Virus record (IMG/VR): IMGVR_UViG_3300010882_000011
Coordinates: 1-64,000 of that record
DNA: 64,000 bases
Source: a virus
Lineage: Duplodnaviria; Heunggongvirae; Uroviricota; Caudoviricetes
Strand: one strand, 5' to 3'
Both the position numbers and the translations under genes were made by a program. How positions within the stretch are numbered: the stretch's first letter is position 1; every line of letters starts with the position of its first letter. A model generated the notes under the pieces. The model did no database searches. It was not told the origin of the DNA and saw only the letters and a list, made by a program, of their open reading frames with translations. Below, in pieces: positions 563 to 7,628 of the stretch.

Positions 563-1141
563 TTACTTATGTTTATTTGCTAATGTTTTTATTTTATTTC
601 TATAATTTGGGTCTTCTGCATAAACTTTGGCAATGAAATCTAAATATTCATCTTCCGTTTTAATATTAGAAGCATATGTAGATTGCCAAAAGGCATAATC
701 CAATAAACTATAGTACCAACTTTCGTAGTATGCGAATCCGAACTGATCTCCATCCGCTGTATTAATCCTGGACTTAGCGAGACGCATTCCGAAGAGATTA
801 TTACTTTCTTTGCAGAGTTTTGATGTAAATGTAGCCGATTCAACTACTGCTTGGGCGTACACAATATGAGGAAACTTAACATTAAGTGCCTTAATTGCTT
901 CTTTAACTCCTTTTTCTGTTGGTCGTGATTTGTGTCCAGTTAGGACAACGTATTCCTTTTCTGTTATGATACATTCCTGTCCATAGATAGACTTACTAAT
1001 GTAGTATCCACCCAAGAAAGGAAAGATCGAAAAGATTAGAAATACTATTAGCCATCTAAATAGCATTTGATTAGGTAATAAGTTTATTTCCTTGATTACC
1101 ACATGGTTGATACTATCTAGAATCCTGTACCGTTTACCCAT
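563..1141 (-). CDS. membrane-anchored peptidoglycan hydrolase, glucosaminidase-domain (FlgJ-like N-acetylglucosaminidase)
   Basis: N-terminal TM segment; motif ...YAQAVVESATF...NNLFGMR matching the glucosaminidase (PF01832-type) signature AQAxxESGWG...NNLFGIK. Confidence 0.6.
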   Translation of the reverse strand: MGKRYRILDSINHVVIKEINLLPNQMLFRWLIVFLIFSIFPFLGGYYISKSIYGQECIITEKEYVVLTGHKSRPTEKGVKEAIKALNVKFPHIVYAQAVVESATFTSKLCKESNNLFGMRLAKSRINTADGDQFGFAYYESWYYSLLDYAFWQSTYASNIKTEDEYLDFIAKVYAEDPNYRNKIKTLANKHK

Positions 1142-2247
1142 TCTTTAATTGTTTTTGATTCTGGAGAAGTATTGACAAACAATTTCGCATAAATCTCCTT
1201 CTGAATAGTTTTGATTACCTGTTCAGGATTTTCAACTTGATCCAAACAACTGATAACGAATCTATTAGCACCTCTATAAGAGAAGTCCTGTCTATCTTTA
1301 TTTAAAGCGTAATTAAACAATTCCATACTAAGTGGAGCTGTTCTCAATTGCCCTTGATATAAGTTAGTAATGTTAGTTTCGTTCTCGTTATTAACCAAAT
1401 TTAGTTCCTGTTCGCCAGGTAATGGCCCAGCACCATGCCGAGTTAAATATGCTCGTAAACAGTACCATTTAGTGACACTGTTTCTGACCTCATCCTTTAG
1501 GTGTGCCAAAAGACCATGATTGGTAGTTTTACCATAAGTGACATAAGGATAAAATCCGTGTTCTCTATCTAGTAAAACTCCTTGATTGCCTTCAAAGATT
1601 AAGTGACCGTAAGGTATTTGATCGGAAGAAAATTGAATAGAATTCTGATAAAGATAATCACAGTCTTCTTCAAATGAAAATCTATCTAGTTCCAGTGTTG
1701 CTACTTCCTCCATAAATCTATCAACCAGATTAAGTTCCTTACATTTACTAAAATAGTAGTTGTAAATGTTTCTCAACTTCATCTTCCTGATTGTTGGAAA
1801 CTCTAAATCAGAGAGAATAAATGATATCAACTCATTACGCACTATGGTCTGCATATATCCAACCCCAACGGTGTTACCTTTGTTAGTTACCCTATCAAAA
1901 GCAATATCATATACAGTAGTAATGGGATTGTTATCATAAGTTCCAAATGAGGGCGTTACGGGCAACTTCTTCATTAGCAAAACATCTCTTTCATGACGAA
2001 AGTGAATTGGACTTAAAGTTACTCCTTTTCCCCATACAGACATAGCACCTCTTAGTGTTCCAGCACAGAAATGGTGAAATGTGTGAGTTATATCTCCAAG
2101 TTTTACGGTATGTCCTACCTGATGTCCTCCCGAATGTCTGATTACACAAACATCGGAGGGAATGTCATATTGAGAACAAAGATAATCGACAACAACACCT
2201 TTACCTTCATCTCCAAAGCCTAATCCTATTACCGAGTGTATATCCAT
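1117..2247 (-). CDS. purA: adenylosuccinate synthetase-like protein
   Basis: N-terminus GFGDEGKGVVVDYL ... HSGGHQVGHTV matches the PurA P-loop GDEGKGK and QGGHNAGHT motifs; 376 aa, divergent. Confidence 0.6.
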   Translation of the reverse strand: MDIHSVIGLGFGDEGKGVVVDYLCSQYDIPSDVCVIRHSGGHQVGHTVKLGDITHTFHHFCAGTLRGAMSVWGKGVTLSPIHFRHERDVLLMKKLPVTPSFGTYDNNPITTVYDIAFDRVTNKGNTVGVGYMQTIVRNELISFILSDLEFPTIRKMKLRNIYNYYFSKCKELNLVDRFMEEVATLELDRFSFEEDCDYLYQNSIQFSSDQIPYGHLIFEGNQGVLLDREHGFYPYVTYGKTTNHGLLAHLKDEVRNSVTKWYCLRAYLTRHGAGPLPGEQELNLVNNENETNITNLYQGQLRTAPLSMELFNYALNKDRQDFSYRGANRFVISCLDQVENPEQVIKTIQKEIYAKLFVNTSPESKTIKEWVNGTGF

Positions 2248-2248
2248 A

Positions 2249-3133
2249 TTATTTTATAAAGCTAACTGTGTGATAATCTTCAACTTTCGTAATGTCTTCT
2301 TTAACATAAGAATTATTCTTCAGAGTTTCTTTTACTTGTACTTCGCTGGCTCCTTGAGAAACAGCAACGGTTGTGGCAATAAGATCAACAATCTTAGAAG
2401 AATCAAGGATGAATAAATTCTCTCCTAATAAATCTTTCCATTTATCAGAAATATCTTCACCGTAAGTTCCATCAGAACAATGAATATGATAAACATTCCA
2501 CTTTTGCTGAGCTTCTTTTAAAAGTTGAACAGAAGCTTCATCTTCTGCTTCAGGATAACCAAGAATTTTCTTTAATTTAGCACTTTCGACACGTGGATGA
2601 TTCCATTCGTCTCCAATAGTAAATAAAAATCCTTTCTTACCTCTCTTTTCAAAAGCGTCAGTAACGGTATGTCTCGCAGCAAAAAGCCACGGCAACATGT
2701 AGGATTCCATTCTCTGTCCACCTCCCCCACCTTCTAACCAAATATTGGTTAAGTCGTTAGTCAATTCAATATCACCAGATTCAAATTGTCCAACTTGTAG
2801 TGGGGCACTATCATAATAATGGTCTCCAACAGCACAGAAACAAATAGTTACATCAGGCACTCCATTTTCAATTAATGCAATCATCAATTTAGTGAAGTGT
2901 TCCTGTGCTAGTTTATAAGGAATATTTCCCATTGATCCTGTTACATCAAATGCAACTATCACGGGAACTGTATTAGGATGAACATCAGAATCTCTAGCCT
3001 CTCTTACTTTTAGCTTGAAAGGATTCAAAGAGTCGTGAATTTCTCTTGCTTTAAAGACTTGTTCACGACTCATCGAACGATATTCTACTTCTCTACTCGC
3101 TGAACGAGTATAATCAGTAACTGTTCCTCCCAT
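2249..3133 (-). CDS. von Willebrand factor A (vWA)-like domain protein
   Basis: MIDAS-like DVTGSM motif near the start of a ~200-aa alpha/beta region; 294 aa. Confidence 0.45.
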   Translation of the reverse strand: MGGTVTDYTRSASREVEYRSMSREQVFKAREIHDSLNPFKLKVREARDSDVHPNTVPVIVAFDVTGSMGNIPYKLAQEHFTKLMIALIENGVPDVTICFCAVGDHYYDSAPLQVGQFESGDIELTNDLTNIWLEGGGGGQRMESYMLPWLFAARHTVTDAFEKRGKKGFLFTIGDEWNHPRVESAKLKKILGYPEAEDEASVQLLKEAQQKWNVYHIHCSDGTYGEDISDKWKDLLGENLFILDSSKIVDLIATTVAVSQGASEVQVKETLKNNSYVKEDITKVEDYHTVSFIK

Positions 3134-3136
3134 GAC

Positions 3137-6036: not shown

Positions 6037-6464
6037 TATATTAAATATTTTTCGTAATCTTTTCCGTGTTTGTATAACTCTCTTATAAATGACGAAGATA
6101 CAAAGGAATTTGTAGGTAGAAATATAGTTCGGACATAAGGATTCAAATCTTCGTTGATCCTTGCCAAAGCTATTTCGTAGTCAAAGTCAGATGCACTTCT
6201 TAGTCCTCGAACTATGAAACTGACCTCGTATTTATCACAATAGTCAGACACAAGTCCATCAGTGTAATCTACCGTAACCTGACAATCGAATAATGACTGC
6301 ACCCTGTCCATCTCTTCCTGCTGATTAAATAATCTTAACTTCCGTGGATTATCAGCAAAAAGAATGATGACTTCATCAAATATTGCTCTTGCTTGAGTCA
6401 CCACTTCGAGATGTCCTGAGTGAAAAGGATCAAATGTCCCTGGAAATACTGCTATTTTACTCAT
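6036..6464 (-). CDS. coaD: phosphopantetheine adenylyltransferase (CoaD/PPAT-like nucleotidyltransferase)
   Basis: MSKIAVFPGTFDPFHSGHLEVV (HxGH nucleotidyltransferase motif) and C-terminal ...RGLRSASDFDYE...SSSFIREL, typical of CoaD. Confidence 0.75.
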   Translation of the reverse strand: MSKIAVFPGTFDPFHSGHLEVVTQARAIFDEVIILFADNPRKLRLFNQQEEMDRVQSLFDCQVTVDYTDGLVSDYCDKYEVSFIVRGLRSASDFDYEIALARINEDLNPYVRTIFLPTNSFVSSSFIRELYKHGKDYEKYLI

Positions 6465-7080
6465 TTAATGCTTTTCTTAAAATGTTAATAACGCTTTCAG
6501 TTGAATTTGGATTGTCTGTGACTTCCCAACACTTGTGATGTTGAAAATGTTTTAACATCTGATGCTCACTCGCTTGAACTGCTAATATTCTTTCAACATT
6601 TTCTTCAAGAACATATGCTCCATATTTATTGGCTCTTTCAAAGCATCTCTTACGATTAATTTCATCATTGCCAGTGGTTCTGACAAATATATAATCAACC
6701 AGAATATTATCAAAAAACTCAGGATTAGCACATTCTACAATTAAAGCTTTTCTTTCTTCAACATTACAATAAAATTCCATACTATCCCTAAGTCGATTAA
6801 TTACAAAAGGTCTAGTTAAATACTGGATAAACCTCCTGTTTTCTTCAGCATTTCTGTAAAAGAAAATAAACTTTGCTATTTCTTGTAAATCAACTTTATC
6901 ATCTTGAACAAGATCTGGATATGGCATATACTTCAGAATATCTATAATAAGCTTATCCTTGTATGCTGATTTGGCATGTGAGTCACAGTCAAATATGGGA
7001 ATATCCAATTCCTCTGATATTTTTCTGGCCAGGGTAGTCTTTCCACTACCCATTCTGCCAGTTATTCCTATAATTTTCAT
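6457..7080 (-). CDS. P-loop kinase, dephospho-CoA kinase (CoaE)-like
   Basis: MKIIGITGRMGSGKTT Walker A at the N-terminus followed by FDCDSHAK (like CoaE IDADxIA); adjacent to coaD. Confidence 0.45.
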   Translation of the reverse strand: MKIIGITGRMGSGKTTLARKISEELDIPIFDCDSHAKSAYKDKLIIDILKYMPYPDLVQDDKVDLQEIAKFIFFYRNAEENRRFIQYLTRPFVINRLRDSMEFYCNVEERKALIVECANPEFFDNILVDYIFVRTTGNDEINRKRCFERANKYGAYVLEENVERILAVQASEHQMLKHFQHHKCWEVTDNPNSTESVINILRKALNE

Positions 7081-7082
7081 AA

Positions 7083-7628
7083 TTAAAATGGTAATTTGTC
7101 ATCTACTGGATGATAACGAAACAGGGATTTTACATCCCATTGGTAATCAATGCTTCCATCATAAATGACAATAGTTCTAATGACTGATTTGTTTATCAAA
7201 CTTTCCACTGTGTTCTTAATAAGGTCTCGAGTTCTTCCTGCATAGAAGGAGTCATCAAAGAGATAGTATCTCGCGTCAGGGTAAGTTTTGTGGAGATTAA
7301 TGAAACCGTTAGCTGCTCTGTCATATACCTGAACATCATACTTTGATTTCCTGAGTCCACCTGGCAGTAAAACGATACCTTTGAAGTGCTTATATAACAT
7401 GTCTCCATATTGATTTATGACAGCCTCTCCGAATTGGCCCGTTAGGATTAATACATTACTATCGGTACGATTTAAGATATTATTGAGTAGATGACTTACT
7501 GATAATCTTAGAATATCAACATCGCTTCTAATCATCATATCCAAAGCATCAAAGAAAGCTTCTCCTCCACTATGTTGTTTGAGGATTTGTTCAATCTCTG
7601 TATTTAGTTTCTGTGTTATCACAACCAT
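7083..7628 (-). CDS. phosphoribosyltransferase-like protein (putative)
   Basis: C-terminal YYLFDDSFYAGRT resembles the type I PRTase PRPP-binding motif (VLLVDDVxTGGT). Confidence 0.35.
   Translation of the reverse strand: MVVITQKLNTEIEQILKQHSGGEAFFDALDMMIRSDVDILRLSVSHLLNNILNRTDSNVLILTGQFGEAVINQYGDMLYKHFKGIVLLPGGLRKSKYDVQVYDRAANGFINLHKTYPDARYYLFDDSFYAGRTRDLIKNTVESLINKSVIRTIVIYDGSIDYQWDVKSLFRYHPVDDKLPF

Follow-up and report, generated by a model that had tools for sequence, protein, structure and literature searches.

Systems of ADP-ribose (ADPr) processing under the control of Nudix transcription factors, in which von Willebrand factor A (vWA) 'chaperones', Macro and NADAR are included, were described by Iyer et al. 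(2022, PMC9503650), and in a Legionella survey a gene with an adenylosuccinate synthetase (AdSS) domain was found nearby in 60% of cases of a DarT-like ADP-ribosyltransferase (ART) family, sometimes with Nudix (PMC12522546). For phages, NAD+ reconstitution pathways (NARP) are known, of which NARP1 consists of Adps and Namat and NARP2 of Nampt and Nmnat (PMC13464706), and coaD and coaE are already listed as abundant viral auxiliary genes (PMC11097641). These systems, together with PurA, PurZ and the kinase-vWA systems, were compared with a block of eight genes (positions 1117-7628) in the DNA of a tailed virus (Caudoviricetes; IMG/VR virus record IMGVR_UViG_3300010882_000011), positions 1 to 64,000 of which, as the whole stretch analysed, are called the window. 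The last two genes of the block encode a vWA-like protein and a short homologue of PurA, and belong to a cassette carried by hundreds of phages and by bacteria from about nine phyla; in the literature searched, no direct description of a vWA plus PurA-like system was found.

With the Nudix/NrtR ADPr systems (PMC9503650) and the Lmac_3114 DarT-like ART operons (PMC12522546), the bacterial loci of the cassette have an inventory in common (NrtR-type Nudix with winged helix-turn-helix (wHTH), Macro, ARH, NADAR, vWA and AdSS-domain), whereas the obligate vWA-PurA-like pairing, the two alternative third partners, the divergent aspartate loop and the phage copies are absent from those descriptions, and no ART gene is present in the window. 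With the NARP systems (the third, NARP3, consisting of PnuC and NadR-like) this phage shares NAMPT/Namat-like, Prs/Adps-like, NadE and Macro genes; Prs-like and NAMPT-like genes flank the cassette in some bacteria and phages, and the kinase and nucleotidyltransferase pair of the block resembles the two modules of NadR in outline. However, none of the eight block genes belongs to a NARP enzyme family by profile, and the cassette is without a described role in NAD+ synthesis. With the kinase-vWA systems (PrkA/YeaG-YeaH with DUF444, and the TerY-P triad), the common features are vWA/MIDAS with weak DUF444 similarity (E 2e-4) and, in one of two types of the cassette (type A), a protein-kinase-like gene which precedes the vWA gene. 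In contrast to these systems, AAA+/PrkA, SpoVR and PP2C are missing from the cassette, the NTP-using partner is a PurA homologue, and the window has the non-kinase version, in which a gene named s130 takes the third place.

Separable units of the block

The eight open reading frames (ORFs) of the block lie head to tail on the minus strand, and are given below in the order of transcription.

7083-7628, minus strand, phosphoribosyltransferase (PRT)-like protein, 181 aa, first in transcription order (unit 1)
6457-7080, minus strand, CoaE-like kinase, 207 aa, with P-loop GRMGSGKTT (unit 2)
6036-6464, minus strand, predicted CoaD, 142 aa, with GTFDPFHSGH, RGLRSASDFDYE and SSSFIR (unit 2)
3907-6036, minus strand, DUF8224 / phrog_1735 protein, 709 aa (unit 3)
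3529-3906, minus strand, s125 (phrog_2018), partner of DUF8224, 125 aa (unit 3)
3137-3529, minus strand, s130, putative helical adaptor, 130 aa (unit 4)
2249-3133, minus strand, vWA-like protein with MIDAS motif, 294 aa (unit 4)
1117-2247, minus strand, PurA-like protein, 376 aa, with GDEGKG and GGHQVGHT, last in transcription order (unit 4)

Six of these ORFs had been named in the initial annotation, and all six are present in the translations at the positions and on the strand given there, together with every motif quoted; the other two (3137-3529 and 3529-3906) had not been listed, and both have homologues elsewhere. The eight genes are co-directional and probably co-transcribed. Their junctions are -8, -1, 0, -1, +3 and +1 nt, with a maximal spacing of 3 nt, no strong terminator was found inside the block, and in base composition it does not differ from the remainder of the window.

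By comparison with other loci, at least four separable units make up the block, which is a mosaic and not one pathway. The closest related locus, on a 115-kb contig (L004; 44-79% amino acid identity), contains the PRT-like, CoaD, DUF8224, 125-aa, 124-aa, vWA, PurA-like and lysin genes, without the CoaE-like one. In the huge phage LR756500, DUF8224, CoaD and the CoaE-like gene are far apart (at ~365 kb, ~36 kb and ~62 kb, respectively), and in Ackermannviridae DUF8224 and the 125-aa gene are kept and the next gene, of 290 aa, is unrelated to vWA. The PRT-like gene stands alone, among unrelated small genes, in the loci of its more distant homologues (L168-L171). The constant partner of the PurA-like gene is the vWA gene, not a phosphoribosyltransferase (PRTase) or the genes for coenzyme A (CoA). 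Thus, the family calls of the initial annotation (PurA family, vWA, CoaD, CoaE-like, PRTase-like) were borne out, and its view of them as a single purine-salvage/cofactor module was not.

According to that view, inosine monophosphate (IMP) or AMP would be made by the PRTase out of a free base and adenylosuccinate by the PurA-like enzyme out of IMP, with host PurB finishing, and CoA would be topped up by CoaD/CoaE, by which the adenine-nucleotide and cofactor pools would be boosted. It agrees with the CoaD and CoaE-like assignments, with the tight packing of co-directional genes, with the P-loop, D13, H41, Q224 and the likely 5'-phosphate contacts kept by the PurA-like protein, and with a Prs-like gene downstream for the supply of phosphoribosyl pyrophosphate (PRPP). 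It is nevertheless considered unlikely in view of the weak match of the PurA-like protein to PurA (111 vs 402 bits, with the R303/R305/T300/T301 loop and the C-terminal third missing), its tie to vWA in >95% of loci, for which salvage gives no role, and the fact that outside this lineage it was never tied to PRTase-like or CoA genes; PurB was not found in the 21-kb locus. Two genes upstream of the vWA/PurA-like pair in Rhizobium phage TM30, 'phosphoribosyltransferase-like' and 'cytidyltransferase', were considered as orthologues of PRT-like and CoaD and rejected, being ComF-like PRTase_3 and Nudix, respectively; as they are non-orthologous, the apparent support from them for one pathway was rejected as well.

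The vWA/PurA-like cassette

The cassette was defined by gene order on one strand: s130 or a J-domain/kinase-like gene comes first, then a vWA-like gene, and directly downstream of it a short PurA-like gene. In the window, s130 (3137-3529), vWA-like (2249-3133) and PurA-like (1117-2247) follow one another with gaps of 3 and 1 nt. The scans covered 80 IMG/VR loci and 80 genome loci (one genome per species) for the PurA-like protein, and 80 viral loci from the vWA-like query. In IMG/VR, a vWA-like gene was directly upstream of the PurA-like one on the same strand in 77/80 loci, and in the remaining three the locus starts with the PurA-like gene itself. In the genomes, the pair was found in 56/80 loci, from Bacteroidota, Pseudomonadota, Actinomycetota, Chloroflexota, Bacillota, Planctomycetota, Verrucomicrobiota, Patescibacteria and Obscuribacteraceae, and the other 24 are canonical PurA of ~430 aa, matched over residues 5-281 only. 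Reciprocally, the PurA-like gene was downstream of the vWA-like one in 78 of the 80 viral loci, the other two contigs ending within 1.7 kb. The pair is also present in cultured phages, namely as gp018/gp019 in Rhizobium phage TM30 (36% identity) and as gp256/gp258 in Bixzunavirus Mikro (33%). With >4,000 homologues of the vWA protein and pairing in >95% of the sampled loci, the cassette is an essentially obligate pair or triad, with carriers among hundreds of phages and bacteria from about nine phyla.

The two genes are separated by a median of 70 nt, and where the distance is larger, a homing endonuclease of the GIY-YIG or LAGLIDADG kind has been inserted. In viral contigs, such homing endonuclease genes recur between or beside the two genes (L014, L024, L032, L034, L038, L065, L067, L068 and others).

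The third gene was of two kinds, never found together (0 loci). In 48 loci (type A) it encodes a protein of ~294 aa with an N-terminal J-domain and a protein-kinase-like domain (GSK3 E 1e-5, DnaJ/RabJ), and in 47 loci (type B, that of the window), including a Zunongwangia chromosome, it is a homologue of s130 of ~120 aa directly upstream of the vWA gene. No match to s130 was found in the profile libraries. That s130 might be a piece of the J-domain/kinase-like protein was rejected (hhalign probability 1.8%).

Predicted structures were made for the PRT-like and vWA-like proteins, and by the model the 294-aa protein is a vWA fold with MIDAS. Its MIDAS-type residues D63-V-T65-G-S67 and G174-D175-E176 (DxSxS...D) are invariant in two independent alignments. 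The fold was shown by modelling because Pfam gave only weak DUF444 matches in 2/39 homologues; Pfam VWA matched neither the vWA-like protein nor its 39 homologues, and no solved structure was matched, either with the single sequence or with the profile. Hence the earlier call of a vWA domain at 2249-3133 is upheld by the fold and the MIDAS residues, although the Pfam VWA profile is not matched. The N-terminus reads M-G-[GYSH]-x-x-[YWF]-[SD] in all 78 homologues examined, which come from phages and from bacteria of nine phyla; in homologues whose ORF call runs further upstream the M-G motif is internal, and in the window the N-terminus is encoded by 3113-3133. Such an invariant N-terminal glycine is unusual.

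The PurA-like protein (1117-2247) matched PF00709 Adenylsucc_synt (E 1.5e-36, 126.5 bits vs 27), but at profile positions 2-278 of 416 only, and all PurA equivalog models failed (NF002223, 111 vs 402 bits; TIGR00184, 92.7 vs 395.55; archaeal NF003295, 64.1 vs 368). Its phmmer alignments to every solved PurA end at E. coli residue ~281. The PurA similarity first proposed for it therefore stands by PF00709, whereas a PurA of the housekeeping type is contradicted by the 111 vs 402 bits and by an aspartate loop which is not conserved. Shared with PurA (EC 6.3.4.4) are the first ~280 residues, with GDEGKG, Asp13, His41, Gln224, TRxGxGP and a (T/C)xxD motif like that of guanine specificity; in contrast to PurA, the protein is ~55 residues shorter, its similarity ends before the aspartate loop, and it is encoded beside vWA. 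Invariant in 43 family members are G12, D13, G15, K16, G17, H46, Q222, R137, T241, C334 and D336, of which H46 corresponds to H41 and Q222 to Q224 of E. coli, and C334/D336 are comparable to TKLD.

A profile-profile alignment (hhalign) was made against 17 canonical PurA from the genome scan together with E. coli PurA, by which residues 1-319 were aligned. E. coli R303 is opposite Gly299 and R305 opposite Leu/Phe301, R306 is kept as R302, and the positions of T300 and T301 are not conserved; in the replaced loop, the family has invariant residues of its own (E290, N292 and Q298). In E. coli AdSS, the roles of T300, T301 and R305 are known from mutagenesis. R303 contacts the O2' of IMP and the aspartate substrate (PMC8342488). 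The alignments indicate that the half of PurA by which GTP is bound and the O6 of a 6-oxopurine nucleoside monophosphate (NMP) is phosphorylated is conserved, and that the acceptor loop is different and the C-terminal insert lost. At the level of sequence, then, the activating half is kept and the acceptor site is different, and the PurA-like protein is a member of the PurA superfamily which is neither PurA nor PurZ.

PurZ (the dGMP-specific succino-aminodeoxyadenylate synthase of Z-genome phages), or a PurZ-type enzyme making precursors of 2-aminoadenine (Z) DNA, is suggested by names and by length. The top PHROG of the PurA-like protein is phrog_1211, labelled '2-aminooxy adenylosuccinate synthetase', the RefSeq label is found on the Rhizobium and Bixzunavirus homologues, and the protein is a short phage-borne PurA homologue, like PurZ and archaeal PurA short in length. 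However, the PurZ model NF038379 gave 33.4 bits vs 300, at residues 213-294 only, and no PurZ structure was recovered by sequence at E<=1. In PurZ of S-2L, Ser (S23) is in place of D13 of PurA, next to the 2-amino group of dGMP (PMC8342488), whereas the Asp in GDEGKG is kept, and invariant, in the PurA-like family. The constant partner is vWA instead of datZ/mazZ, which were not among the neighbours. An assignment to PurZ is thus effectively refuted, and the '2-aminooxy adenylosuccinate synthetase' labels are probably wrong for the vWA-paired family, the window member of which fails the PurZ model. The PurZ label of phrog_1211 has been carried to the Rhizobium and Bixzunavirus genes in RefSeq NC_070966, NC_070967, NC_054719 and NC_067270.

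The obligate pairing is also what would be expected if the cassette were an NTPase/vWA chaperone pair (MoxR-vWA, CobS/CobT, BchI/BchD or NorQ/NorD-like), with the PurA-like protein as mainly a GTP-driven switch or remodeller without a small-molecule product, delivered by vWA to a target protein, e.g. an ADP-ribosylated one. vWA proteins are usually paired with an NTPase, the J-domain in the alternative third partner points to protein handling, and vWA 'chaperones' were proposed in the Nudix-regulated ADPr-processing systems (PMC9503650). Such a pair is improbable here, as the P-loop and the catalytic base and acid of PurA (D13, H41), Q224, and the NMP-site residues T241 and R137 are invariant, which is hard to explain without IMP-type chemistry.

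NAD+/ADP-ribose context

In the bacterial cassette loci, an NrtR-type Nudix-wHTH regulator (Pfam NUDIX and NrtR_WHD) was present in 32/56, vs 0/24 of the canonical-PurA loci. In Proteobacteria the regulator is transcribed divergently from a three-gene operon, and in Flavobacterium/Chryseobacterium the cassette is in long operons with NADAR, Macro and ARH, KptA/Tpt1, Prs-like and NAMPT-like genes. Within +/-10 kb, any NAD/ADPr gene was present in 35 of the 56 bacterial loci vs 6 of the 77 viral ones. Neighbours of the viral cassette were more often HAD_SAK_2, R2K ATP-grasp, DNA/RNA ligases, HD domains, exonuclease and TROVE. No MazG family was found among the recurrent neighbours of the cassette, the ORFs of the window having been scanned in part. 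Near type-B cassettes in viral contigs, at distances of a few kb, TROVE/Ro60-like genes and RNA ligases recur (L049, L051, L053, L011, L019, L041 and L048); as a theme other than NAD+, RNA repair is suggested by these neighbours.

In the source contig (L174), beyond coordinate 1 of the window and on the same strand as the block, a set of NAD+ salvage genes lies 2-7 kb downstream (13273-18381 of the contig), with the following members, all past the left edge of the window.

Same strand, isochorismatase/PncA-like
Same strand, NAMPT/NadV-like, 511 aa, 397.5 bits vs 405
Same strand, NadE, 183 bits vs 63.65
Same strand, Macro, DarG-like
Same strand, divergent PRPP-synthetase-like (possible Adps), 68 bits vs 296

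This downstream set matches the inventory of phage NAD+ reconstitution, of NARP1 or NARP2 type. A remark in the initial annotation on an NAD-type module is accordingly supported by gene context only, with NAD+ salvage genes just outside the window.

On this evidence, the reading of the block as a four-unit mosaic whose cassette is used in NAD+/ADP-ribose conflict, and not in housekeeping purine salvage, is favoured as moderately probable. With low confidence, IMP or a close analogue would be the substrate which the PurA-like protein activates by means of GTP, and, at the same low level, the activated purine would then be passed to an amine bound in another way than in PurA; the MIDAS-bearing vWA partner would take part in this. 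The context suggests that the cassette works in the NAD+/ADP-ribose arena, the bacterial copies being under the putative ADP-ribose-sensing NrtR-type regulator and the phage copy in what may be a counter-defence island continuing outside the window with NAMPT/Namat-like, NadE, Macro and PRPP-synthetase/Adps-like genes. Such an island, centred on NAD+/ADP-ribose, would with medium confidence be formed by the block together with the genes that follow it downstream.

A more specific form of this reading, to which a slender chance is given, is that of a GTP-dependent purine-C6 ligase, by which IMP would be phosphorylated at O6 and then joined to a non-aspartate amine, for use by bacteria and phages in NAD+/ADP-ribose conflict. 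The most provocative candidate for the amine is the invariant N-terminal glycine of the vWA partner, which would give a protein-N6-AMP conjugate or an N6-substituted adenine nucleotide.

Several points weigh against the favoured reading. The link to NAD/ADPr genes is strong in bacteria and weak in phages (6/77 viral loci), and with the ligase and TROVE-type neighbours of the viral cassettes a theme of RNA repair is equally compatible. Many of the bacterial loci are from related Flavobacterium/Chryseobacterium genomes, and the counts are therefore not of independent events. The loss of R303/R305 makes aspartate binding of the PurA type unlikely and does not exclude aspartate; the replacement loop has conserved Thr/Asn/Gln/Arg which could bind a carboxylate, and in PurZ as well the R303 equivalent is positioned differently (PMC8342488). 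Tight packing of phage genes says little about a shared function; conversely, the units could still cooperate in this phage. The score of the CoaE-like kinase is below its TIGRFAM cut-off. The substrate and product of the cassette and the role of vWA are inferred.

The remaining units and their surroundings

The product of 6036-6464 matched the coaD equivalog TIGR01510 (E 3.5e-39, 134.3 bits, cut-off 103.3) over its full length (residues 4-141 vs profile positions 1-143 of 155). Its motifs, as read from the translation, are GTFDPFHSGH (T/HxGH type), VRGLRSASDFDYE (the RGLRxxxDFxYE segment) and VSSSFIRE (ISSS(x)(I/V)R), the residues of which have roles known from the E. coli phosphopantetheine adenylyltransferase (PPAT) structures. 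Models of nicotinamide mononucleotide (NMN) and nicotinic acid mononucleotide (NaMN) adenylyltransferases matched it only at the N-terminal ~40-60 residues (the HxGH region), with E >= 8e-7, and the best of them scored 28.7 bits vs a cut-off of 150 over ~45 N-terminal residues. Judged by profile and motifs, 6036-6464 encodes a bona fide CoaD; the initial annotation had called it so, and the NMN adenylyltransferase which it gave as the alternative was not borne out by the profile search.

The product of 6457-7080 matched PF01121 CoaE (E 3.4e-10, 40.3 bits vs 27; residues 3-178, profile positions 2-167 of 180) and TIGR00152 (E 6.4e-15, 55.5 bits, under the cut-off of 65.55). CoaE was its top match by nine orders of magnitude, the next family (E 1.8e-6) being matched at the N-terminus/P-loop only, and no model of ribosylnicotinamide kinase (RNK) or NadR was listed for it in the profile search. 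By these matches it is assigned as a divergent P-loop kinase of the CoaE family, and the earlier CoaE-like call is upheld at family level, with PF01121 passed and the TIGR00152 equivalog failed, against the alternative of an unrelated kinase.

The same two genes would complete the downstream set if CoaD-like were an NMN/NaMN adenylyltransferase and CoaE-like a nicotinamide-riboside (or related) kinase, as a split pair like NadR/NARP3 serving NAMPT/NadE. Downstream on that strand there are indeed NAMPT-like, NadE, PncA-like, Macro and Prs-like genes, and the 21-kb stretch showed no further gene of NMNAT type; a P-loop kinase with a HIGH-motif nucleotidyltransferase mirrors the RNK and NMNAT of NARP3 (PMC13464706), both superfamilies include NAD enzymes, and NMNAT/NadD models do match the N-terminal HxGH region. 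This NAD assignment is rather unlikely all the same, since the coaD equivalog is matched in full length (134 vs 103 bits) and NMNAT/NadD models at residues 1-60 only (16-29 bits vs 112-450), the PPAT-type RGLRxxxDFxYE motif is present, and the only full-length match of the kinase is CoaE. An NMNAT would, moreover, be unneeded if the downstream pair is of NARP1 type (divergent Prs as Adps, divergent NAMPT as Namat).

The CoaE-like gene overlaps the start of CoaD by 8 nt, and the adjacent, translationally coupled pair is most likely an auxiliary metabolic pair for the last two steps of CoA synthesis; with medium confidence, CoaE-like and CoaD would supply CoA. A PPAT which passes the CoaD model and a CoaE-family kinase make this phage like other viruses with coaD/coaE auxiliary genes, whereas here the two are adjacent and translationally coupled, and the CoaE-like kinase is unusually divergent and missing from L004, the closest relative of the locus; 50,697 phage records gave only 5 weak matches to it. 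The CoA pair is an ordinary, previously reported kind of auxiliary gene and a modest addition. Homologues of CoaD are annotated in Brevundimonas, Caulobacter and Myxococcus jumbo phages and unannotated in Lak phage records. The 220-aa neighbour of CoaD in the Brevundimonas phage was considered as CoaE and rejected (no Pfam match). Several CoaD-matching 'phage' records (AGRM01000003, AFYI01000003, MW495066 (L173) and short OR84xxxx) are evidently bacterial DNA, for example Salmonella enterica contigs and a 'Microcystis phage' region with rplA, rplK, nusG and secE, so the phage CoaD counts are inflated.

In unit 3, the 709-aa protein, for which the initial annotation had an ORF without assignment, matched phrog_1735 (E 7.8e-203), and PF26675 DUF8224 was matched by the identical gene in the source contig. 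DUF8224 is present in 532 phage records, including Ackermannviridae, Bacillus BCP78-like, Caulobacter and Cellulophaga phi4:1 phages, and no match to solved structures was found with the single sequence or the profile. The 125-aa protein matched phrog_2018 (E 4.4e-33), and its homologue directly follows DUF8224 in Salmonella phage Se-J (gp143-gp144), L004, L021 and L078, and is 4.7 kb from DUF8224 in Cellulophaga phi4:1; the two form a pair common to many large phages. Se-J gp146 (290 aa, two genes beyond gp144) was considered as a vWA protein and rejected, being unrelated, with gp49/RyR domains. The same gene (L002 9854-10726) closes the Ackermannviridae DUF8224 module, its RyR domain being matched with E 1.9e-10. 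Cyclic-ADPR Thoeris signals are reported to be degraded or sequestered by phage RyR-domain proteins (bioRxiv 10.64898/2026.05.28.727677), and because gp146 carries such a domain, DUF8224 may be in anti-defence neighbourhoods too.

By its predicted structure, the 181-aa protein of unit 1 is an orphan type I PRTase fold and a rare one. A PRPP-binding loop (a hydrophobic stretch, two acidic residues and xxxGxT) is present (YYLFDDSFYAGRT), with D125, D126, S127, Y129, G131 and T133 invariant in 8/8 homologues (motif DDSxYxGxT). Only these eight were found in 5.8 billion proteins, and PF00156 and the NCBIfam models gave no match at E<=0.1. The PRTase-like call for 7083-7628 was thus confirmed by the fold and the PRPP loop.

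Around the block, the PurA-like gene overlaps the next gene, for a glucosaminidase-type lysin (563-1141), by 25 nt. The sole strong terminator-like hairpin nearby (8369-8343) is upstream of the block, after the Band_7 gene and on the same strand. This terminator is preceded by the 573-aa Band_7/SPFH gene (8422-10143) and, before that, an NfeD-like gene (10149-10655), and is followed by tRNA-Met (8162-8235); in the relative L004 the NfeD-Band_7 pair also precedes the block, without the tRNA. The Band_7/NfeD genes and tRNA-Met were looked at on account of the idea of SPFH/tRNA-like RNA repair, and were rejected as part of a block unit in view of the strong terminator between them and the absence of the tRNA from L004. 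Further upstream on the same strand are a calcineurin-like phosphoesterase and a GNAT/FR47 acetyltransferase (10659-11339 and 11847-12326, respectively), and the N-terminus of the phosphoesterase weakly resembles a gene of ~250 aa after KptA in Chryseobacterium cassette operons (31% over 80 aa). In a preprint, phage phosphatases countering RES-type NAD+ depletion are reported (bioRxiv 10.64898/2026.01.28.702374).

The window holds four tRNAs and tail/portal-like genes. Two copies of tRNA-Glu(UUC) stand 180 nt apart (17361-17433 and 17612-17685), and five further tRNAs are clustered at 19130-20067 of the source contig, downstream of the NAD genes; by an Rfam scan of the 21-kb locus, tRNAs only and no riboswitch were found. 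No meaningful match of the eight proteins was given by the PADLOC defence models. An identical PurA-like protein is encoded on contigs of 170.0-170.2 kb from several samples, which points to a phage of ~170 kb, and no near-identical phage DNA was found; its host is of low GC, probably Bacteroidota.

The core finding is unit 4, the vWA/PurA-like cassette, and the PRTase of the block is an orphan. By the definition of a compact and very common cassette of two or three genes, hitherto undescribed and mis-annotated, the PurA/PurZ labels in databases are corrected, including those of the well-studied Bixzunavirus mycobacteriophages and of Rhizobium phages, in which the labels imply purine salvage or Z-DNA. 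With the activating chemistry of PurA apparently kept and an acceptor site that differs, the enzyme of the cassette is a tractable candidate for new nucleotide chemistry. Because the bacterial copies are under NrtR-type ADP-ribose sensors among NAMPT, Prs, Macro, ARH, NADAR and KptA, and the phage copy is beside NARP-type genes, NAD+-depletion immunity and its evasion, an active field, may involve this cassette as a player overlooked so far.

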